Assembly: GCA_043798995.1 (NCBI GenBank)
Contig: JAZDOD010000011.1
Coordinates: 4,737 to 68,736 of the forward strand
DNA from: a bacterium
GTDB lineage: Bacteria; Patescibacteriota; Patescibacteriia; JAACEG01; JAGUWE01
DNA: 64,000 nt
Reading direction: 5' to 3'
The notes under the pieces are model-generated. The model was not told where the DNA came from. It saw only the letters and a list, made by a program, of their open reading frames with translations, and ran no database searches. How positions within the stretch are numbered: the stretch's first letter is position 1; every line of letters begins with the position of its first letter. Below, piece after piece: positions 7,681-59,460 of this stretch. Position numbers and translations under genes: made by a program.

Positions 7681-7745
7681 TTCCGCCCGAGGCGTGCGCC
7701 CGAGGCCCATCCGCCTCTGGCGGAGATCCGCCTTTGGCGGAAACT
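7681..7745. repeat. 64-bp palindromic MITE-like repeat (family B: TTCCGCC...CCGCCTTTGGCGGAA), intergenic copy
   Basis: Near-identical to copies at 13117-13180 and (reverse-complement) 46184-46245; terminal inverted repeat TTCCGCC/GGCGGAA. Confidence 0.7.
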
Positions 7746-12700: not shown

Positions 12701-12756
12701 TTTTCCCTCCTTGATTTTAGATTGTTTTTAAGGTATCCTGATTAAGACATATATTC

Positions 12757-12852
12757 TGTCATTCCTGCGGAAGCAGGAATCCAGAGAAGTTATTTTATCA
12801 ACCAATCCTGACAAATTAAAATCTAGATTCCGCATCAAGTGCGGAATGACAT
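12757..12852. repeat. MITE-like element, family A (TIR GTCATTCC/GGAATGAC enclosing two palindromic hairpins)
   Basis: TGTCATTCCTGCGGAAGCAGGAATCCAGA ... GATTCCGCATCAAGTGCGGAATGACAT; same ends as the GIY-YIG unit at 19161-19542. Confidence 0.65.
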
Positions 12853-12878: not shown

Positions 12879-14021
12879 ATGAAAAGTAACACAAAAAAGA
12901 ACTTAAGTCAAGGCACAAACAATCGATATCATATTATCACCCATGGTTGTCAGATGAATGTTTCTGACAGCGAAAAAATCGTCGGTCTTTTGGAAAGGCA
13001 GGGTTATCAGAAAGCTAAAGATGCTAAATCGGCCAATTTAGTAGTAATTAATGTTTGTTCGGTGCGCCAGTCGGCGATGGACCGCGTTTATAGTAAAATA
13101 AAAGAATTACGAATTTCCGCCCGAGGCGTGCGCCAGAGGTCCATCCGCCTTTGGCGGAGATCCGCCTTTGGCGGAAAGAATTTAAAATTATTCCCTGAGC
13201 AAAGTCGAAGGGTAAGAATAATTTTAGCGGGATGCCTTTTAGAGACAGATAAAAAGAAATTAAAAGATAAAGTTGATGAGATTTGGTATCCTGACAAATA
13301 TTTTAGCATGGCTTCTTGCCGTGAAAATAAAAATTTAGCTTACGTGCCGATTATGACGGGGTGTAATAATTTTTGCGCCTATTGCGTCGTGCCGTATACC
13401 AGAGGTAGGGAAAAATCAAGATCAGCGTTAGAGATTATTAAGGAAGTAAAAAGATTAATTAAAAGTGGCTATAAAGAAATTGTGTTGATAGGGCAGAATG
13501 TTAATAGCTATTCATGTAACATGGAACATGAAACCTGTAACACAATTAATTTTCCAAAATTATTGAAAATTATCAATGATTTGCCGGGTGATTTTTGGTT
13601 GCGATTTATGACGAGTCATCCTAAGGATATGTCGGATGAACTGATTGAGGCGGTGGCAAAATGCGGGAAAGTCAAAAAAGAAATTCACCTGCCAATCCAA
13701 AGCGGCGATGACGAAATTTTAAAAAAAATGAATCGTGGCTACACTGTGAAAAAATATAAAAATTTAATTAAAAAAATCCGTCAAAAAATACCCGGCGTTA
13801 AAATTTCTACTGACGTGATTGTCGGTTTTCCCGGCGAAACAAAAAAACAATTTCAAAATACAGCCAAGCTTTTCCGCCAAATTAAATTTAACAAGGCCTA
13901 CATTGCCAAATATTCTCCTCGTCATGGCACGGCTGCGGCTAAGCTCAAAGATGATGTTTCACCGCAGGAAAAGAAAAGACGCTGGCAGATTTTAGAAAAA
14001 ATAGCTAATCAAAAGAAATAA
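12879..14021 (+). CDS. miaB: tRNA methylthiotransferase (MiaB/RimO radical-SAM MTTase family) carrying an in-frame repeat insertion
   Basis: MTTase N-domain HGCQMNVSDSE, radical SAM CNNFCAYCVVPYTRG, TRAM region; in-frame foreign peptide from the repeat at 13117-13180. Confidence 0.85.
   Translation: MKSNTKKNLSQGTNNRYHIITHGCQMNVSDSEKIVGLLERQGYQKAKDAKSANLVVINVCSVRQSAMDRVYSKIKELRISARGVRQRSIRLWRRSAFGGKNLKLFPEQSRRVRIILAGCLLETDKKKLKDKVDEIWYPDKYFSMASCRENKNLAYVPIMTGCNNFCAYCVVPYTRGREKSRSALEIIKEVKRLIKSGYKEIVLIGQNVNSYSCNMEHETCNTINFPKLLKIINDLPGDFWLRFMTSHPKDMSDELIEAVAKCGKVKKEIHLPIQSGDDEILKKMNRGYTVKKYKNLIKKIRQKIPGVKISTDVIVGFPGETKKQFQNTAKLFRQIKFNKAYIAKYSPRHGTAAAKLKDDVSPQEKKRRWQILEKIANQKK
13117..13180. repeat. 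Family-B 64-bp palindromic repeat inserted in frame within miaB
   Basis: Near-identical to 7681-7745; encodes SARGVRQRSIRLWRRSAFGGK without stop codons. Confidence 0.7.
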
Positions 14022-19139: not shown

Positions 19140-19160
19140 AATAATTTAATTATTTTTTCT

Positions 19161-19542
19161 TGTCATTCCTGCGGAAGCAGGAATCCAGACGATTAAAGAT
19201 CATAATACAGATCTTGCCAGTTAGGATTTGATTTTTCAATTAATTCTAATTTCCATTTTCTCTTCCATTTTTTTAATCTTTTTTCACCCTCGATAGCACT
19301 TTCTATACTAGCCGTTTCTTCGTAATAAACTAAATTATGGATTTTATACTTTTTCGTAAAACCGGAAATTAAATCGTTTTTATGTTCGTAAATCCTCTTT
19401 TTTAAATTTGATGTCACTCCGATATATAGAGTACCATTTCTTTTACTTGCCAAGATATAAACGTAATAAGATTTCATTGTTTTCTGGATCCCGCATCCCG
19501 CCTGCATTAAAATTACGGCGGGCAGGCAAGTGCGGGATGACA
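19161..19542. mobile_element. ~382-bp GIY-YIG-encoding unit bounded by inverted hairpin ends (TGTCATTCCTGCGGAAGCAGGAATCCAGA ... TCTGGATCCCGCAT...GTGCGGGATGACAT)
   Basis: Both ends occur fused, without the gene, as the 61-bp MITE at 55868-55928. Confidence 0.6.
19193..19477 (-). CDS. GIY-YIG nuclease family small protein
   Basis: MKSYYVYILASKRNGTLYIGVTSNLKKRIYEH...; the first 22 codons of the listed ORF lie in the right hairpin end, so start moved to M23. Confidence 0.8.
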   Translation of the reverse strand: MKSYYVYILASKRNGTLYIGVTSNLKKRIYEHKNDLISGFTKKYKIHNLVYYEETASIESAIEGEKRLKKWKRKWKLELIEKSNPNWQDLYYDL

Positions 19543-19596
19543 TAGGGAGAATTAGTGTGGAATGACAAAATAAATATTGTTAGGATGACAGAAAAT

Positions 19597-28840: not shown

Positions 28841-29230
28841 TGTCATTGCGATCCGCCAGCTGGCGGAGAAGCAATCTCTTCCTTAATTTATGAAACACAA
28901 AAAATACTATGTCTATATAATGACTAATAAAACTAACTCCACGCTTTATAGCGGTGTAACAAATAATCTTAAAGAGAGAGTCTATCAACATAAAGGCAAA
29001 TTAATCGAAGGATTTACTAAAAAGTATAACATTAATAAATTAGTTTATTATGAGGAGTTTAACAATGCTTACGATGCAATCGCTCGAGAGAAACAAATTA
29101 AAGCGGGTTCAAGGAAAAAGAAAATTGAACTAATTGAGAAAGAAAATAAAAATTGGAAGAATTTAAGCGAAGATTGGTAAAGTGAGATTGCCGCGTCGTC
29201 CTGCCTGCGGCGGGACTCCTCGCAATGACA
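28841..29230. mobile_element. ~390-bp GIY-YIG-encoding unit with symmetric ends (TGTCATTGCGA-hairpin-GCAATCTC ... GAGATTGC-hairpin-TCGCAATGACA)
   Basis: 11-bp TIR TGTCATTGCGA/TCGCAATGACA plus inner inverted pair GCAATCTC/GAGATTGC; isolated ends at 11909 and 50748. Confidence 0.6.
28890..29180 (+). CDS. GIY-YIG nuclease family small protein
   Basis: YYVYIMTNKTNSTLYSGVTNNLKERVYQHK; paralog of 19193-19477. Confidence 0.8.
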   Translation: MKHKKYYVYIMTNKTNSTLYSGVTNNLKERVYQHKGKLIEGFTKKYNINKLVYYEEFNNAYDAIAREKQIKAGSRKKKIELIEKENKNWKNLSEDW

Positions 29231-34364: not shown

Positions 34365-34449
34365 ATTTTGGAAGGGTCGCATTGCGCCTCTTCGGCGCAT
34401 TTATGCGCCAAGTTGGCGCATCCGCCGTTGAGGCGGAAGTGGAAAATAT

Positions 34450-34710
34450 ATGTATTATTTTTATGTTTTACAATTTAAGAATAATAAAAAATTATATAAA
34501 GGAATTACAAATAATTTAAGAAAAAGAATAACAGATCATCGTTCTGGTCAGTCAAAATTTACTTCACGAAACGGCGATTTTAATTTAATTTTTTATGAAG
34601 CGTATTTAGATAAAAGAGATGCCATAGAGGCGGAAAGATATTTTAAGAGCGGTCACGGCAGAGAAGTATTGAGGCAAAAATTAAAATATTATTTTGGAAG
34701 GGTCGCATAG
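34450..34710 (+). CDS. GIY-YIG nuclease family small protein; C-terminus overlaps tRNA-Ser
   Basis: MYYFYVLQFKNNKKLYKGITNNLRKRITDH; stop codon TAG at 34708-34710 inside the tRNA. Confidence 0.8.
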   Translation: MYYFYVLQFKNNKKLYKGITNNLRKRITDHRSGQSKFTSRNGDFNLIFYEAYLDKRDAIEAERYFKSGHGREVLRQKLKYYFGRVA

Positions 34711-34780
34711 TGGTCTAGTGCGCCTGCTTGGAGAGCAGGTATGCCGCAAGGCATCGCGAGTTCAAATCTCGCCCCTTCCG
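34696..34780 (+). tRNA. tRNA-Ser (anticodon GGA)
   Basis: Hand-folded: acceptor GGAAGGG/CCCTTCC, 3-bp D stem, anticodon stem CCTGC/GCAGG loop TTGGAGA, long variable arm ATGCC-GCAA-GGCAT, T-loop TTCAAAT, discriminator G. Confidence 0.85.
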
Positions 34781-34848
34781 TTTGAGTTTTTTGCGGCAAA
34801 AATTATCAAAGCACTTGGCGTTTCTATTGAGGAGTTAATAAAATAACT

Positions 34849-46142: not shown

Positions 46143-48095
46143 ATGACAGCTAAAGAAGTCCGCGAAAAATTTTTAGATTTTTTTTCCGCCAAAGGCGGAT
46201 CTCCGCCAAAGGCGGATGGACCTCTGGCGCACGCCTCGGGCGGAAAAGGTCATACCATTATCCCTTCGGCGCCGCTTGTTCCAGAAAACGATCCAACGGT
46301 GCTTTTTACTACGGCCGGTATGCATCCTTTGGTGCCTTATCTTCTGGGCGAAGACCATCCGGGTGGGAAAAGGGTGGCCAATGTTCAGATTTGCCTAAGA
46401 ACCGATGATATTGAAGAAATCGGCGACAATCGGCATTTGACTTTTTTTGAAATGCTGGGCAATTGGAGTTTCGGAGACTATTTTAAGCGCGAGGCGATTG
46501 AGTGGAGTTTTGAATTATTAACCTCTAAGGATAAAGGTTTTGCTTTGGATCCGAAACGATTATACGTCACAGTTTTTGGCGGCGTTAAAGAATTAGGTTT
46601 AGAGCGAGACGAAAAGTCAATTAAAATCTGGCAAGAAGTTTTTGCCAAAGCTGGTTTAAAAGCTGAAGTTGCCGACGAAGGTAATATTTGGAAAAATAAA
46701 AATATAAGAATTTTTCCTTTGGGCATGAAAGATAATTTTTGGGGACCGGTTGGAGAGATTGGTCCTTGCGGTCCTTGCACCGAAATGTATTATGATCTCC
46801 ACCCAAAAAAAAAACACAGCAAAGTATCATTTGATGATTTGATTGATCAGTTTAGATTTTTGGAAATTTGGAATGATGTTTTTATGGAATTTAATAAACT
46901 GTCCGATGATAAATATGAATTGTTAAAGCAAAAAAACGTTGATACGGGTATGGGCGTGGAACGAATGTTAGCCGTCTTAAATAATAAAGAGAATATTTTT
47001 GACATAGAACTTTTTAGCGCAGTTTTTGAAAGTATAAAAAAATTGTCGGATAAAAATTATAATAATTGTCAAAAGGAATTTAGAATTATAGCCGACCACT
47101 TAAAAGCCGCGGTTTTTATCTTGGCGGAAAACATTGAACCGTCTAACGTTGATCGCGGCTATGTGCTTCGCCGTCTTATTCGCCGGGCCATTCGTTGCGG
47201 CAAACAAATCGGCATTAAAACTCCTTTCACCCATAAAATCGCCGAAGTTATCATTAATCTTTATCAAGATCCGTATTTGCATCTAAAGAAAAATCAGGAT
47301 TTTATTATTGAGCAACTGGTCAGAGAAGAAGAAAAGTTTGGCGAAACCCTGGAAAAAGGTTTAAAACAATTTAAATTTTTAATCAGGCGTAAATTAATAA
47401 TTACTCCCGTTGAACCGGGATCGCCAACCACCGATATAAAAGATAAAATGAAAATTACTGGCAGAGAAGCGTTTGATTTATATCAGACCTACGGTTTCCC
47501 CTTAGAGTTAATAAAAGAATTGGCAAGAGAAAATAGATTTACAGTTGATGAAGATGGTTTTAATGAGGAAATGAAACACCATCAAGAGCTTTCGCGCACT
47601 GCCGCGGCCGGTATGTTCAAGGGCGGTCTTTCAGACCATTCGGAAATTGCTACCCGCTATCATACGGCCACGCATTTGCTTTTGGCGAGCTTACGGAAAG
47701 TTTTGGGCGAACACGTTTTTCAGCGCGGCTCAAATATTACGGCCGAAAGATTGCGTTTTGATTTTTCCCATTCGGAAAAGTTGACGCCCGAGCAGATTAA
47801 ACAGGTTGAAGATTTGGTTAATCAAAAAATTCAAGAAGGTCTGCCGGTCAAGGTTGAAGAAATGACGGTTAACGAAGCCAAAGCCCAAGGCGCTATCGGC
47901 GTTTTTGAGCAAAAATACGGCGAGCGAGTTAAGGTTTATACGATTGGCCTCTCGACAAGCTCGGGGTCTATTTTCAGTCAGGAAATTTGCGGCGGACCGC
48001 ATATTAAAAATACCCGACAGCTTGGTAAATTTAAGATTATTAGAGAAGAGGCTAGCTCTGCTGGTGTAAGGAGAATAAAAGCGGTATTGGAGTGA
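46143..48095 (+). CDS. alaS: Alanine--tRNA ligase (short form lacking C-terminal domain) with in-frame repeat insertion
   Basis: FLDFFSAKG...HTIIPSAPLVPENDPTVLFTTAGM, editing-domain HTATHLL, CGGPH; 650 aa. Confidence 0.9.
   Translation: MTAKEVREKFLDFFSAKGGSPPKADGPLAHASGGKGHTIIPSAPLVPENDPTVLFTTAGMHPLVPYLLGEDHPGGKRVANVQICLRTDDIEEIGDNRHLTFFEMLGNWSFGDYFKREAIEWSFELLTSKDKGFALDPKRLYVTVFGGVKELGLERDEKSIKIWQEVFAKAGLKAEVADEGNIWKNKNIRIFPLGMKDNFWGPVGEIGPCGPCTEMYYDLHPKKKHSKVSFDDLIDQFRFLEIWNDVFMEFNKLSDDKYELLKQKNVDTGMGVERMLAVLNNKENIFDIELFSAVFESIKKLSDKNYNNCQKEFRIIADHLKAAVFILAENIEPSNVDRGYVLRRLIRRAIRCGKQIGIKTPFTHKIAEVIINLYQDPYLHLKKNQDFIIEQLVREEEKFGETLEKGLKQFKFLIRRKLIITPVEPGSPTTDIKDKMKITGREAFDLYQTYGFPLELIKELARENRFTVDEDGFNEEMKHHQELSRTAAAGMFKGGLSDHSEIATRYHTATHLLLASLRKVLGEHVFQRGSNITAERLRFDFSHSEKLTPEQIKQVEDLVNQKIQEGLPVKVEEMTVNEAKAQGAIGVFEQKYGERVKVYTIGLSTSSGSIFSQEICGGPHIKNTRQLGKFKIIREEASSAGVRRIKAVLE
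46184..46245. repeat. Family-B 64-bp palindromic repeat (reverse orientation) in frame within alaS codons ~15-35
   Basis: Reverse complement matches 13117-13180; encodes GSPPKADGPLAHASGGKG between conserved FFSAKG and HTII. Confidence 0.7.
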
Positions 48096-48122
48096 ATAGA
48101 AATTAGTGATTAGAATTTTTCT

Positions 48123-48191
48123 TGCGGGATCGTTTCTAACGGCCCGCCAAAGGCGGGTAAATAAGACAGCGGCCGGCGCTTGTCCCGCACA
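48123..48191 (+). other. tRNA-Gln-like remnant (acceptor arms retained, interior replaced by hairpins)
   Basis: Begins TGCGGGATCGT and ends GTCCCGCA like tRNA-Gln at 48549; interior CCCGCCAAAGGCGGG. Confidence 0.35.
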
Positions 48192-48196
48192 AAACT

Positions 48197-48230
48197 GGGG
48201 GGTCGTCTAATGGTAGGACACCAGCCTTTT
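48197..48230 (+). other. Diverged duplicate of tRNA-Gln 5-prime half, ending in the anticodon loop
   Basis: GGGGGGTCGTCTAATGGTAGGACACCAGCCTTTT vs TGCGGGATCGTCTAATGGTAGGACCGCGGCCTTTG. Confidence 0.45.
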
Positions 48231-48306
48231 CCGCCGGAGGCGGACTCGCCTTTTCCGCCAAAGGCGGATCTGCCTTGGGCATGAGGCGAGGAAGCCGAAA
48301 ATAAAA

Positions 48307-48645
48307 ATGTATTACACTTATATATTAAAAAGCAAAAAAGACGGAATTCGTTATGTTGGTAGCGGTGAAGATGTATTAGAAAGATTACGTCGGCATAATA
48401 AAGGTGACCATCAATTTACAAAAGGGCACCGACCTTGGGAATTAATTTATCAAGAAAAATATAGCACAAGATCAGAAGCTATGAGGCGTGAAAAATTTTT
48501 AAAATCAGGTCAAGGAAGAAAAATTTTAGATGAGGTTCTCGGCAAGGCTGCGGGATCGTCTAATGGTAGGACCGCGGCCTTTGAAGCCGTTAATCATGGT
48601 TCGAATCCATGTCCCGCAGCCTTGCCGAGAAATAGTAAAGAGTAG
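48307..48645 (+). CDS. GIY-YIG nuclease family small protein; reading frame runs through tRNA-Gln
   Basis: MYYTYILKSKKDGIRYVGSGEDVLERLRRHNKG; last ~30 codons overlap the tRNA, true C-terminus uncertain. Confidence 0.7.
   Translation: MYYTYILKSKKDGIRYVGSGEDVLERLRRHNKGDHQFTKGHRPWELIYQEKYSTRSEAMRREKFLKSGQGRKILDEVLGKAAGSSNGRTAAFEAVNHGSNPCPAALPRNSKE
48549..48619 (+). tRNA. tRNA-Gln (anticodon TTG)
   Basis: Hand-folded: acceptor TGCGGGA/TCCCGCA with U1-A72, D stem GTCT/GGAC, anticodon stem GCGGC/GCCGT loop CTTTGAA, T stem CATGG/CCATG loop TTCGAAT, discriminator G. Confidence 0.85.
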
Positions 48646-48720
48646 GAGAGACGGCCTTTTCCACTGGGGGCGGACTTGCTTGTCCCGCCTTGGCGGGGCG
48701 GCCTCCTTGCCCCGCTATAG

Positions 48721-48760
48721 GCGGGGTGAAGAGCCGTTAATCATGGCCCGCCCCGCACCA
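48721..48760 (+). other. tRNA-Gln 3-prime-half-like fragment ending in CCA
   Basis: TGAAGAGCCGTTAATCATGG matches the tRNA from anticodon loop through T stem, then CCCGCCCCGCACCA. Confidence 0.35.
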
Positions 48761-48840
48761 ATCCTAAGTAAAATTTTCCTAATTTTTCCATTTGTGCTAA
48801 AATTAAGTTAAAAGATATTTAACATTAATTTTTTAATTTT

Positions 48841-49869
48841 ATGGAAGAAGTTAACCCCGCAAAAAAAGACGAAGTTTTAGACAAAACCATCCTTCAGCCG
48901 CCCCAAAAGATGGAAAATTCTTACGGGGCAAGAAAAACCGGGCCGCGAGATGTTTTTTTGCACCTTCTGGCCATTATCACGCTTTATTTCAGCGCCGTTA
49001 ATGTGGGAATCTTGCTTTTTCAGTATATTAATCTGGCTTGGCCCGATCCTTTGTGGGATCCTTTTTTTCGGCTTGACGCCGCTCGGCGCTTGATTCGTTG
49101 GGCCATCTCCGCTTTGGTAGTAGTTTTCCCTGTTTATGTCTGGGTCAATTATTTTTTAAACAAGGAATTAATCCGGCTTCCGGAAAAGAAAGAACTGCGC
49201 ACCCGCAAGTGGCTGCTTAATTTCACTTTATTTGTGGCGGCTTTGGTTATTATCGGCGGTTTGGTTTCTTTAATTTATAATTATCTTGGCGGTGAAATTT
49301 CACTTCGTTTTATTCTTAAAATTTTAGTTGTGTTTTTGATTGCCGTCGCAGTTTTTGCCTATTATCTTTGGCAGTTAAGACGCGAGCAACTGGCTAAATG
49401 GGATAAAATAATGAAATTTTTTCCCCGGTCAATCGTTGCTCTAGTGGCGCTTATTATTATCAGCGGTTTTTTTATGGCCGGCTCGCCGCAAGCGGAGCGC
49501 CTGCGCCGTTTTGACGACAGGCGAGTGGGAGATCTTCAGGGGATCCAACGTCAAATCGTCTTTTTTTGGCAGCAAAAAAATAATCTGCCGCAAAATCTTG
49601 ATGAATTGATAGACAATATTTCCGGCTATCTGCCGCCCGTTGATCCGGAAACCAACCAGCCGTATGAATACCGCGCCACCGGTGATTTAGGGTTTGAGCT
49701 TTGCGCCAATTTTAAAACCAAAGGCACGGGGATAGAAGGACAATCTATGCCACAACCGGTTGAAGGGCCGAAAATTTACTCCGATACTTTTAACAATTGG
49801 CAGCACGAAACCGGCCGAGTTTGTTTCCAGAGAAAAATTGATCCGGAGCTGTATAAGAAATTAAAATAA
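48841..49869 (+). CDS. Hypothetical polytopic membrane protein
   Basis: At least 5 TM helices, 342 aa. Confidence 0.55.
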   Translation: MEEVNPAKKDEVLDKTILQPPQKMENSYGARKTGPRDVFLHLLAIITLYFSAVNVGILLFQYINLAWPDPLWDPFFRLDAARRLIRWAISALVVVFPVYVWVNYFLNKELIRLPEKKELRTRKWLLNFTLFVAALVIIGGLVSLIYNYLGGEISLRFILKILVVFLIAVAVFAYYLWQLRREQLAKWDKIMKFFPRSIVALVALIIISGFFMAGSPQAERLRRFDDRRVGDLQGIQRQIVFFWQQKNNLPQNLDELIDNISGYLPPVDPETNQPYEYRATGDLGFELCANFKTKGTGIEGQSMPQPVEGPKIYSDTFNNWQHETGRVCFQRKIDPELYKKLK

Positions 49870-54624: not shown

Positions 54625-54667
54625 CTTGATAATTCATTGTTGTCTTGCCGCAGAGTTGCCTTCGTCT

Positions 54668-54790
54668 GTCATTCCCGCGGAAGCGGGAATCCAGACGCCG
54701 TTCCTGCGAAAGCAGGGAGCCAGGGGATGTGGATTCCCGTTTTCACGGGAATGACAAAAAAAGAAAAAGTGCGGGATGACAAATAGAACG
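54668..54790. repeat. Compound MITE-like hairpin repeats (family A variants)
   Basis: TGTCATTCCCGCGGAAGCGGGAATCCAGA ... GGATTCCCGTTTTCACGGGAATGACA ... GTGCGGGATGACA. Confidence 0.6.
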
Positions 54791-55867: not shown

Positions 55868-55960
55868 ATTTTGACTTCTTCTCTTTGTCATTCCTGCGGA
55901 AGCAGGAATCCAGAGCTGGATCCCGCATCAAGTGCGGGATGACATAGATGAGGCACAGGA
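55868..55960. repeat. MITE: fused left and right ends of the GIY-YIG unit (gene deleted) plus extra hairpin
   Basis: TGTCATTCCTGCGGAAGCAGGAATCCAGAGCTGGATCCCGCATCAAGTGCGGGATGACAT. Confidence 0.7.
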
Positions 55961-59391: not shown

Positions 59392-59460
59392 TTCTCTTTG
59401 TCATCCCGCACTTGATGCGGGATCCAGCTCTGGATTCCTGGTCAAGCCAGGAATGACAGA
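59392..59460. repeat. MITE (reverse orientation of the fused-end element, variant hairpin)
   Basis: TGTCATCCCGCACTTGATGCGGGATCCAGCTCTGGATTCCTGGTCAAGCCAGGAATGACAGA. Confidence 0.65.

Follow-up and report, generated by a model that had tools for sequence, protein, structure and literature searches.

Integrase-driven islands and prophages insert in tRNA genes and carry a partial tRNA copy, so that a functional gene remains and a partial tRNA repeat lies at the far end of the element. Closer to the locus described here is SegB, a GIY-YIG homing endonuclease with a 27-bp site that includes 11 bp of the T-psi-C stem-loop (PMC2330249). SegB has the cleavage motif RAWTSGAAC, co-localises with phage tRNAs and drives recombination-dependent amplification of segB and tRNA segments (PMC13096335). 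In T4 the segB gene lies 5 nt upstream of tRNA-Arg on the same strand. The present analysis concerns a tRNA-Gln(UUG) locus with a GIY-YIG gene in a 64,000-nucleotide stretch of contig JAZDOD010000011.1 from a bacterium of the Patescibacteriota (G+C content 39%); this whole stretch is called the window below. The resident tRNA-Gln(UUG) gene was probably invaded by a homing-type, site-specific selfish GIY-YIG cassette that acts like SegB. The insert is composed of a hairpin module (H), a few nucleotides of tRNA, an 80-codon nuclease gene, a complete foreign tRNA-Gln enclosed in a 20-bp stem, and a degenerate H followed by a 3' remnant. The features of the locus are listed below, one per line (ORF, open reading frame).

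46143-48095, plus strand: gene for alanyl-tRNA synthetase (AlaRS; from the ORF list), the left neighbour and synteny anchor; its 3' end and the spacer recur in contig L086 of a relative.
48096-48122, plus strand: native spacer between AlaRS and the original tRNA-Gln, ATAGAAATTAGTGATTAGAATTTTTCT, compared with ATAGAAATTAGTAATTAGAAATTTTT in L086.
48123-48191, plus strand: the "shell", a dead tRNA-Gln copy of the cassette-type allele, made of the 5' end, a D-loop hairpin insert, nt ~22-32, a deletion and the 3' acceptor strand.
48196-48229, plus strand: 5' half (canonical nt 1-35) of the resident tRNA-Gln(UUG), orphaned by the insertion; 34/34 identity to L086:1585-1618.
48230-48290, plus strand: left hairpin module H, with hairpin 1 TCCGCC-gga-GGCGGA at 48230-48244 and hairpin 2 CTCGCC...GGCGAG at 48245-48250 / 48285-48290.
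48291-48297, plus strand: resumption of the tRNA (nt 36-42, GAAGCCG, cassette allele), followed by a 9-nt leader.
48307-48645, plus strand: GIY-YIG nuclease ORF of 112 aa; the domain is encoded by codons 1 to ~80 (48307-48546) and the rest is stem and tRNA read-through.
48536-48631, plus strand: 20-bp perfect inverted repeat around the tRNA (48536-48555 / 48612-48631).
48549-48619, plus strand: intact tRNA-Gln(UUG), the cassette-borne replacement copy; G48620 is the discriminator base.
48653-48726, plus strand: copy of the junction on the right-hand side, in which a degenerate and expanded hairpin module comes after GGCCTTT (nt 29-35 of the cassette allele).
48727-48760, plus strand: 3' pseudo-fragment, made of nt 36-52 (GAAGaGCCGTTAATCATGG), a short GC insert and the acceptor 3' strand with CCA; it has no T-loop.

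The uninterrupted site is preserved in a relative. The search with the C-terminal 250 residues of AlaRS gave as the closest relative a protein of 82% identity (P0121), located on contig L086 (labels of this type denote contigs and loci outside the window). On this contig the AlaRS stop codon is followed by a near-identical spacer of 26-27 nt and then by an uninterrupted tRNA-Gln(UUG) scoring 60.4 bits. The first 34 nt of this tRNA, TGGGGGGTCGTCTAATGGTAGGACACCAGCCTTT, are identical to 48196-48229 (34/34); beyond them a hairpin follows in the window and GAAGC in L086. Because of this identity at a syntenic site, what the window retains is the resident gene's 5' half, with the cut between T35 and G36. 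It ends with ...CCTTT, the last base being T35 in canonical numbering by our count (raw index 34, since the D-loop is one nt short). The cassette was inserted between T35 and G36 of the resident tRNA-Gln gene. The otherwise conserved site is thus empty in L086 and filled in the window, and the same cassette is found in another resident tRNA in L089. Among the three AlaRS relatives fetched, only the closest one retains tRNA-Gln after AlaRS; L087 and L088 do not. The membrane-protein gene downstream gave 5 loci in a metagenome scan, none with a tRNA, nuclease or AlaRS nearby, so it provides no synteny.

The intact tRNA-Gln of the window is of another origin than the orphaned half, as judged by sequence comparison. 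ARAGORN (48549-48621) and the Rfam tRNA model (48549-48619; 62.7 bits at a gathering threshold of 29) agree on this tRNA, which had already been recognised in the sequence-only reading of the stretch; it forms a complete cloverleaf with the Gln anticodon UUG and is predicted to be functional. Its alignment with the resident allele shows identity at only 57 of 74 positions, the differences being mainly in stems, and the 5' half differs from the intact tRNA at 6 stem positions. Stretches 48190-48236 and 48543-48589 are 79% identical over 47 nt. The nucleotides that follow the left hairpins, GAAGCCG, are those of the intact allele, whereas the resident allele reads GAAGCTG. The intact tRNA represents a foreign allele brought in by the cassette, and it would now cover the function of the destroyed gene.

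Several tRNA-like pieces surround this copy. The sequence-only reading had described them as pseudo-halves broken at one junction in the anticodon loop, and each piece it lists was found again, at most 1 nt away from the position given. Such a junction is borne out by L086, by CCTTT/G (the slash marks the junction) in at least 18 loci of the tRNA-Gln(UUG) nuclease clade and by L001, L010 and L089, but in the window the 5' half has no partner in the 3' fragment, which is a decayed copy of cassette type. The former does end in the anticodon loop; its place had been given as 48197-48230, and the exact half lies one base to the left. The 3' piece at 48727-48760 begins in the anticodon loop (G36), ends with CCA and shares with the intact tRNA an exact 15-mer (AGCCGTTAATCATGG, at 48585 and 48732, the latter copy covering 48732-48746). 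It is not a full half, since the T-loop is missing, and it belongs to the cassette allele and not to the resident one. The right junction copy is collinear with the right H of L001, L005 and L010; the units formed by GCCTTTTCC and a hairpin are present in three copies at the locus, of which the third (right junction) shows 81% identity. The tRNA-Gln-like shell with a replaced interior, noticed earlier at 48123-48191, is also real. Its ends are exact matches to the tRNA (11 nt at the 5' end and 9 nt at the 3' end, TGTCCCGCA), and inside it has gained a hairpin in the D-loop (48143-48157) and lost a segment; pseudo-copies in L008, L010, L011, L012 and L013 have a hairpin at this D-loop site as well. 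On its left the shell is bordered by the native spacer and on its right by nt 1 of the resident 5' half; the empty site of L086 has no such copy. The flanking pieces are not chance low-complexity matches, a possibility which the earlier reading had raised against itself: chance is ruled out by the 34/34 syntenic match together with the anatomy recurring in ~75 of 80 homologous loci. A weak Rfam tRNA match at 48196-48261 (21 bits, threshold 29) was rejected, being the 5' half with hairpins and no tRNA. The Rfam scan found no other family and no group I intron at the locus.

The 20-bp inverted repeat consists of the 7-bp acceptor stem and a 13-bp extension, the 5' strand of which lies within the last GIY-YIG codons. 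As RNA, the extended-stem tRNA is calculated to fold with -60.1 kcal/mol (z=-6.9). Of 67 GIY-adjacent tRNAs, 12 have stem extensions of at least 8 bp, as against 1 among 1340 random-flank controls; the sequences of these extensions differ from locus to locus and are compensatory. Extensions of this length are also present in 4 of 36 tRNAs not directly downstream of a nuclease gene (L001-L080). It is possible that long leader/trailer pairing is a wider feature of tRNA genes in these genomes.

The ORF at 48307-48645 runs through the tRNA in frame, as had been proposed: the first stop is met only at 48643-48645, and codons ~82-105 are translated tRNA. The protein matches the Pfam GIY-YIG family PF01541 over residues 1-67 (E=2.1e-16, 60.4 bits versus a cut-off of 22.6). 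Tyr5, Tyr16, Arg26, His30 and Glu62 are invariant across 42 homologues including the window protein, and we take them to be the GIY-YIG catalytic residues from knowledge of the fold. The nearest solved structures are the UPF0213 proteins 1zg2 (E=5.5e-10) and 1ywl (E=5.6e-9), followed by SLX1 (2e-5). By sequence the protein is classified as a UPF0213 / Slx1-like single-domain GIY-YIG protein of ~80 aa. It comprises the catalytic domain only, with no DNA-binding domain, the remaining 31 aa being tRNA read as protein. Purifying selection on the protein is strong (pN 0.16-0.24 versus pS 0.71-0.95). Exact database look-up of the 112-aa protein gave no match, nor did NCBIfam; in phage and plasmid collections only distant YazA-type homologues of at most 44% identity were found, and no vector. 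Hundreds of homologues exist, mostly in Patescibacteria. Many are ~80 aa long. Some reach ~110 aa and carry the tail AGSSNGRT..GSNP.PA, which is the same tRNA read-through as in the window protein, and others have N-terminal extensions that are translated tRNA 5' halves and hairpins. Within the insert (48230-48726) neither a tyrosine nor a serine recombinase was found, the 112-aa ORF and the tRNA being the only ORFs or genes there.

The association of such genes with tRNAs holds in relatives, as the sequence-only reading would have it. The scan with one genome per species gave 384 confirmed loci encoding a relative of the nuclease, and the best-scoring 80 of these 384 were examined; the proportions given here refer to them. 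At 60 of the 80 loci a same-strand tRNA starts between -30 and +150 nt after the gene. The order is mirrored (tRNA, then nuclease) at 8, and at 4 the gene is followed by a tRNA-Asn with a group I intron, hence missed by ARAGORN (Rfam 59-82 bits); the rest are mostly arrays, contig ends and N-runs. In total ~75 of the 80 are tRNA-linked, i.e. ~15 beyond the 60 downstream same-strand cases. Several phyla are represented, including Patescibacteria, Omnitrophota and Ignavibacteriales. The stop codon of the nuclease gene lies inside or past the tRNA at 20 of 67 loci.

Alignments of the tRNAs to their flanks reveal that the upstream tRNA copy begins at nt 1 and ends at a fixed internal point X. The general plan is tRNA[1..X] / H / tRNA[X+1..X+5-16] / short leader / ATG of the nuclease gene / intact tRNA, to which complete copies add on the 3' side a spacer / tRNA[X-6..X] / H / tRNA[X+1..end]. 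This plan is followed in full, and collinearly, by the window, L001, L005 and L010, and the short resumption of the tRNA after H is present in nearly all loci. The outer 5' and 3' pieces of L001, L010 and L089 pair with each other as the two halves of an old tRNA distinct from the inner one. The outer pieces of L001 have TGGGAGG (acceptor) and TGAGC (anticodon stem) on the 5' side and the complementary GCTCA ... CCTCCCA on the 3' side, whereas the acceptor of the inner tRNA is TGCGGGA/TCCCGCA; L010 is similar. The nuclease of L089 is 79% identical to that of the window and is inserted after GGCCTTT, with the same inner tRNA type and a 14-bp extension stem. The resident tRNA-Gln of L089 has a quite different D-arm, and its 3' end (..CTCCCCAGC) lies downstream.

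Other loci bear multiple copies. In L090 the resident Gln(UUG) is split at CCTTT/, the inner tRNA is Gln(CUG), and two nested 3' remnants follow; L004 also has two nested 3' remnants. Tandem arrays are found in L022, L066 and L075. In L036 (440-1832, Ignavibacteriales) an intact tRNA-Ser(GGA) is preceded by four identical 326-nt units, in each of which tRNA-Ser nt 1-21 are followed by H, nt 22-30, the leader and the nuclease gene. The ORF of an inner unit extends across the pseudo-tRNA and H of the unit after it, up to a TAATG stop/start overlap. Nested remnants and arrays are the products expected of repeated invasion or break-induced amplification, and the identity of the L036 units, judged from their sequences, points to recent activity. 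Directly upstream of the split tRNA-Gln/GIY-YIG cassette of L090 lies a gene for a PF05635 protein (23S rRNA intervening-sequence protein; L090:961-1344). Small genes of the PF05635 type are often found in compact cassettes.

The window itself contains two tRNAs according to ARAGORN and Rfam, namely the tRNA-Gln(UUG) with 62.7 bits and a tRNA-Ser(GGA) at 34695-34781 with 57.1 bits. The latter belongs to a second cassette, in keeping with the earlier suggestion of two GIY-YIG/tRNA associations in this window:

34370-34781, plus strand: second cassette, beginning with tRNA-Ser nt 1-13 (34370-34382), three hairpins (34383-34437) and nt 14-18 (34438-34442).
34450-34710, plus strand: GIY-YIG ORF of the second cassette, ending inside the tRNA-Ser.
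34695-34781, plus strand: intact tRNA-Ser(GGA).

The hairpins at the tRNA-Gln locus (48230-48290 and 48660-48726) had been called family-B-like in the earlier reading. Their presence was confirmed; they are no incidental repeats but constitute a conserved junction module. H is formed by two adjacent 6-bp GC hairpins of the form NNNGCC-loop-GGCNNN. Loop 1 is purine-rich (AAA/AGA; 2.73 purines/3) and loop 2 pyrimidine-rich (TCT/TCC; 0.19/3), with fixed orientation, and a comparison of the module with its reverse complement gives 71% identity. In most cases the distance from its end to the ATG is 8-31 nt, and under strict criteria it was found in 48 of 95 GIY copies. By inspection, the stem sequences seem to vary with the nuclease clade. 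In the left H of the window the loop of hairpin 2 holds a nested H-like insert (48251-48284), which is preceded by the target-like sequence CGCCTTT; of the two modules, the right one (48660-48726) is degenerate. H is a conserved, oriented, near-palindromic module by which the junction is marked in every clade. Nuclease/tRNA loci were the only places where H of the junction type was seen. Solo double hairpins at 7702-7741, 13144-13175 and 46185-46216 are of a different subtype, with two identical hairpins and a GAGGTCCA flank.

The tree of the nuclease proteins (neighbour-joining on ~80 residues, hence rough, with two Lys loci misplaced) shows that clades follow the junction sequence and not the identity of the tRNA. 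The clade of the window, with CCTTT/GAAGC, is found in Gln-UUG. The clade with GGTTC/GAATCC occupies the T-loops of Gln-CUG, one Gln-UUG, Tyr, Ser, Lys and Asn; the clade with GGTTT/AACTGG is found in Ser-GGA; for the clade with CAGTT/GGCT the location is the D-loop in Pro, Val and Phe, but the anticodon stem in Asn. In L032, L045, L057 and L058 (e.g. L045:1406-1648) a nuclease of the Asn clade is followed by a tRNA-Asn with a group I intron after GGCTGT (35/36). This intron lies 5 nt from the clade junction CAGTT/GGCTGT, so that the presumed nuclease target would be split in the functional tRNA-Asn copy. As a corollary of the reading as an unrecognised class of mobile elements (see below), it is possible that the group I introns found at 35/36 of Patescibacteria tRNA-Asn persist by splitting the nuclease target (CAGTT/GGCTGT^), which would make the functional copy immune.

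The following course of events may be proposed for the invasion. The nuclease would recognise ~12 bp of tRNA-gene DNA (GCCTTT/GAAGC) and break it at or near the junction. The break would be repaired by copying the donor cassette, with the tRNA halves serving as homology arms, as in SegB-like homing. H would mark the disrupted and uncuttable copy of the site, and may in addition be a dimer-binding site, an element end or an operator. The cassette is presumably devoid of its own promoter and would share that of the resident tRNA, a single RNA then running from the 5' half through H and the nuclease mRNA to the tRNA. Both spacers, that of the window and that of L086, contain a conserved TAGAAT box, which may be the -10 element of this promoter. 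Excision of the tRNA by RNase P/Z, perhaps with RNase III at the long stem, would strip the stop codon from the nuclease mRNA and so keep the nuclease low; the extended stem may direct the processing of the tRNA. Later recombination among the repeated tRNA parts would yield the form pseudo-5' part - H - nuclease - tRNA, the mirror form and the tandem arrays. Models of target-site duplication and of Campbell-type integration were tried as well, but each accounts for some forms only, and the products do not discriminate.

A number of observations weigh against SegB-like homing. It is the insertion that is recorded in the sequences, and site-specific cleavage is inferred, with indirect support from the agreement between nuclease clades and junction sequences; the protein is a catalytic domain without a DNA-binding domain to read a 12-bp site. 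The L086 contig stops 7 nt past the tRNA, and a nuclease gene could lie further downstream there. The scan of 47900-48900 for sigma-70 promoters found no site at threshold. Between T-loop-clade elements on the Gln and Tyr genes of one genome the DNA similarity extends only from H to the stop codon of the nuclease; since it covers H and the nuclease only, the tRNA is not always part of the moving unit. The model leaves unexplained the duplication of the target's own 5' part and does not account for the origin of the shell at 48123-48191. At many loci the intact tRNA and the pseudo-copy upstream have the same sequence, which fits in-situ duplication or gene conversion no less than import. Finally, the cassette tRNA retains the presumed target GCCTTTGAAGC and no consistent resistant allele is seen, so self-immunity is unexplained. 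The idea that a resistant variant protects the cassette tRNA was given up, because the inner allele of L001 is the outer allele of L005, i.e. the roles swap.

Among the alternatives, the one that survives best places the specificity in the hairpins, although it seems doubtful. According to it, an Slx1-like structure-specific dimer acts on H and not on the tRNA sequence, and the H...H cassette moves in a transposon-like manner by H-H recombination or cut-and-paste, possibly as a small circle in which one H is flanked by ~6 nt of target at either end; H copies standing alone would represent footprints or non-autonomous derivatives. Direct repeats of H do bracket complete cassettes with inner flanks X+1..X+k and X-k'..X, as integration of a circle at an H-bearing site predicts, and the repeat unit of L036 equals the predicted circle. 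The near-palindromic nature of H with its fixed orientation, the structure-specific SLX1 nucleases among the closest solved relatives and the nested H-like unit at 48251-48284 after the target-like CGCCTTT speak in the same direction. But the fidelity of clades to junctions, including CAGTT/GGCT at two structural positions, implies that the target sequence is read, and the empty site of L086 has no H, so that the first insertion needs no prior H. No circular junction was observed, and to our knowledge GIY-YIG enzymes are hydrolytic nucleases for which strand transfer is not known. It is unlikely, in turn, that the cassettes constitute an unrecognised class of prokaryotic mobile elements, in which an Slx1-like dimer would use H as element end and landing pad, cut at the bases of the hairpin or cruciform, and insert at short tRNA motifs, carrying or rebuilding the broken tRNA.

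It is quite improbable that the arrangement is an immobile host feature, i.e. a small GIY-YIG protein of tRNA/RNA metabolism or repair beside pseudo-pieces produced by tandem duplication and decay and by unrelated hairpins. Strong purifying selection on the protein and the strict same-strand linkage to tRNAs would suit such a role, and a bacterial Slx1-like domain is known fused to a TrmH-type tRNA methyltransferase (PMC1564403). The presence or absence of the cassette at an otherwise identical site in a close relative, the foreign allele as the functional tRNA of the window, the same cassette inside unrelated resident tRNA-Gln genes, the nested remnants with identical tandem units, and two different cassettes on two tRNAs within 14 kb all argue for mobility. 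Similar GC hairpins do occur elsewhere in the window, even in frame inside AlaRS, but they are of the solo type with two identical hairpins, unlike the junction hairpins, of which one has a purine-rich loop and the other a pyrimidine-rich loop.

A group I intron in the tRNA-Gln anticodon loop that encodes its own GIY-YIG homing endonuclease, comparable to tRNA introns of Patescibacteria and cyanobacteria and suggested by the GIY-YIG ORF within the interruption and by the 35/36 junction, which is the reported site of tRNA-Asn/Asp group I introns in Patescibacteria (PMC13011429), is hardly credible: RF00028 (Intron_gpI) is absent from the window at the gathering threshold and from 47900-49000 at E<=10, while the same search finds the introns in L032, L045, L057 and L058; a whole tRNA lies inside the insert, and the outer 3' piece without a T-loop allows no spliced functional tRNA. 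A tRNA island mediated by an integrase was rejected, as the insert has no recombinase and the duplicated part starts at tRNA nt 1 and not at the 3' end.

Further small repeats and nuclease genes are present in the window. The solo double hairpins at 13144-13175 (in ORF 12879-14021) and 7702-7741 (intergenic) are in the orientation opposite to that of the copy in AlaRS, each with the GAGGTCCA flank. The one at 46185-46216, TCCGCCAAAGGCGGA-TC-TCCGCCAAAGGCGGA followed by TGGACCTC, is in frame near the N-terminus of AlaRS, giving an unusual peptide (..AKGGSPPKADGPLAHASGGKGHT..) at a place where AlaRS is normally uninterrupted, and looks like an in-frame repeat insertion similar to Rickettsia palindromic elements. 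In L086 (1439-1513) the AlaRS call ends early at a TAA; a stretch of ~75 nt with a CCCGCC..GGCGGG hairpin follows, after which the AlaRS-homologous frame resumes. This stretch may have been inserted into the coding region, or it may be an artefact of assembly. Away from tRNAs there are two further small GIY-YIG genes, at 28890-29180 (in 28841-29230, plus strand) and 19193-19543 (in 19150-19590, minus strand), and their proteins are ~31-42% identical to the tRNA-linked ones. The former gene is bracketed by nested inverted repeats (TGTCATTGCGA..GCAATCTC before the gene and GAGATTGC..TCGCAATGACA after it), the latter is flanked by TGTCATTCC / GGAATGACA and GC hairpins; both look like members of a different small cassette family. 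Gene-less hairpin repeats with TGTCAT(T)...(A)ATGACA ends and the AATCCAGA motif occur at ~12756-12852, 19160-19190, 54665-54760, 55885-55945 and 59397-59460, and may be non-autonomous relatives of the TGTCATT-ended GIY-YIG cassettes.

The searched literature gave no account of small GIY-YIG genes at bacterial tRNA genes or of these chromosomal cassettes. What appears to be new is a group of free-standing, tRNA-targeting GIY-YIG elements of homing type with a minimal Slx1-like nuclease, H, a replacement tRNA and several target classes, widespread in uncultured bacteria. SegB-like homing, the reading preferred here, would assign a concrete candidate role to minimal UPF0213/Slx1-like GIY-YIG proteins, or to one large clade of them at the least: they would attack tRNA genes in a site-specific manner. 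The SegB-style partnership of a GIY-YIG gene with a tRNA gene is not confined to phages. It accounts for tRNA pseudo-halves, tandem arrays of nuclease and tRNA and ORFs running through tRNA genes, which are annotation puzzles in genomes of uncultured bacteria. The locus would also document the replacement of an essential tRNA gene by a foreign allele, driven by a selfish element. If cleavage takes place as proposed, an 80-residue enzyme with apparently programmable short-site specificity and a 30-bp palindromic module would be of enzymological interest. If, on the other hand, the cassettes were an unrecognised class of mobile elements, they would drive horizontal replacement of tRNA genes across Patescibacteria and other phyla.

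Compared with integrase-driven islands, the cassette likewise sits in a tRNA gene, brings tRNA sequence and leaves a functional gene. It differs in having no integrase, in its size (the whole insert is ~530 bp), and in that the rebuilt part is the 5' portion or the entire tRNA, with junctions at internal sites specific to the nuclease clade. In the "fractured genes" described in PMC2677866, a host gene is also broken in two by a free-standing homing endonuclease gene; function is restored there at the protein level by split inteins and here by a spare gene copy.

The minimal UPF0213/Slx1-like proteins (BH0048, 1zg2; EF2693, 1ywl; B. subtilis YazA; PMC1564403) resemble the window nuclease in size and single-domain composition and are its best structural-sequence matches. 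They have no assigned function or tRNA linkage in the sources consulted, whereas the clade described here is tied to tRNA genes and hairpin modules. The group I introns of Patescibacteria tRNAs (PMC13011429) share with the cassette the 35/36 interruption and the enrichment in Patescibacteria, and some of them carry homing endonuclease genes. Their reported endonucleases are HNH, LAGLIDADG or PD-(D/E)XK, not GIY-YIG (PMC13011429). The cassette, in contrast, has no ribozyme, and function is restored by a second DNA copy of the tRNA and not by splicing.

The likeness to SegB of T4/T6 concerns the layout and the proposed activity. In both systems a GIY-YIG gene stands directly upstream of a same-strand tRNA, tRNA-gene DNA is the target (a presumed one in the present case, where one clade has the junction GGTTC/GAATCC), the nuclease gene and neighbouring tRNA genes are inherited together, and the tandem amplification of segB and tRNAs resembles the arrays of L036, L022, L066 and L075. 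There is no homology beyond the fold (hhalign probability 3.7%, with 19 N-terminal columns aligned), and SegB has 221 aa against 80 aa without a DNA-binding domain here. SegB is phage-borne, while the present cassettes reside in bacterial chromosomes and use several classes of sites (D-loop, anticodon loop or stem, T-loop). In contrast to SegB, the cassette splits the tRNA gene, a duplicated or imported tRNA restores its function, and a conserved hairpin module bounds the cassette.

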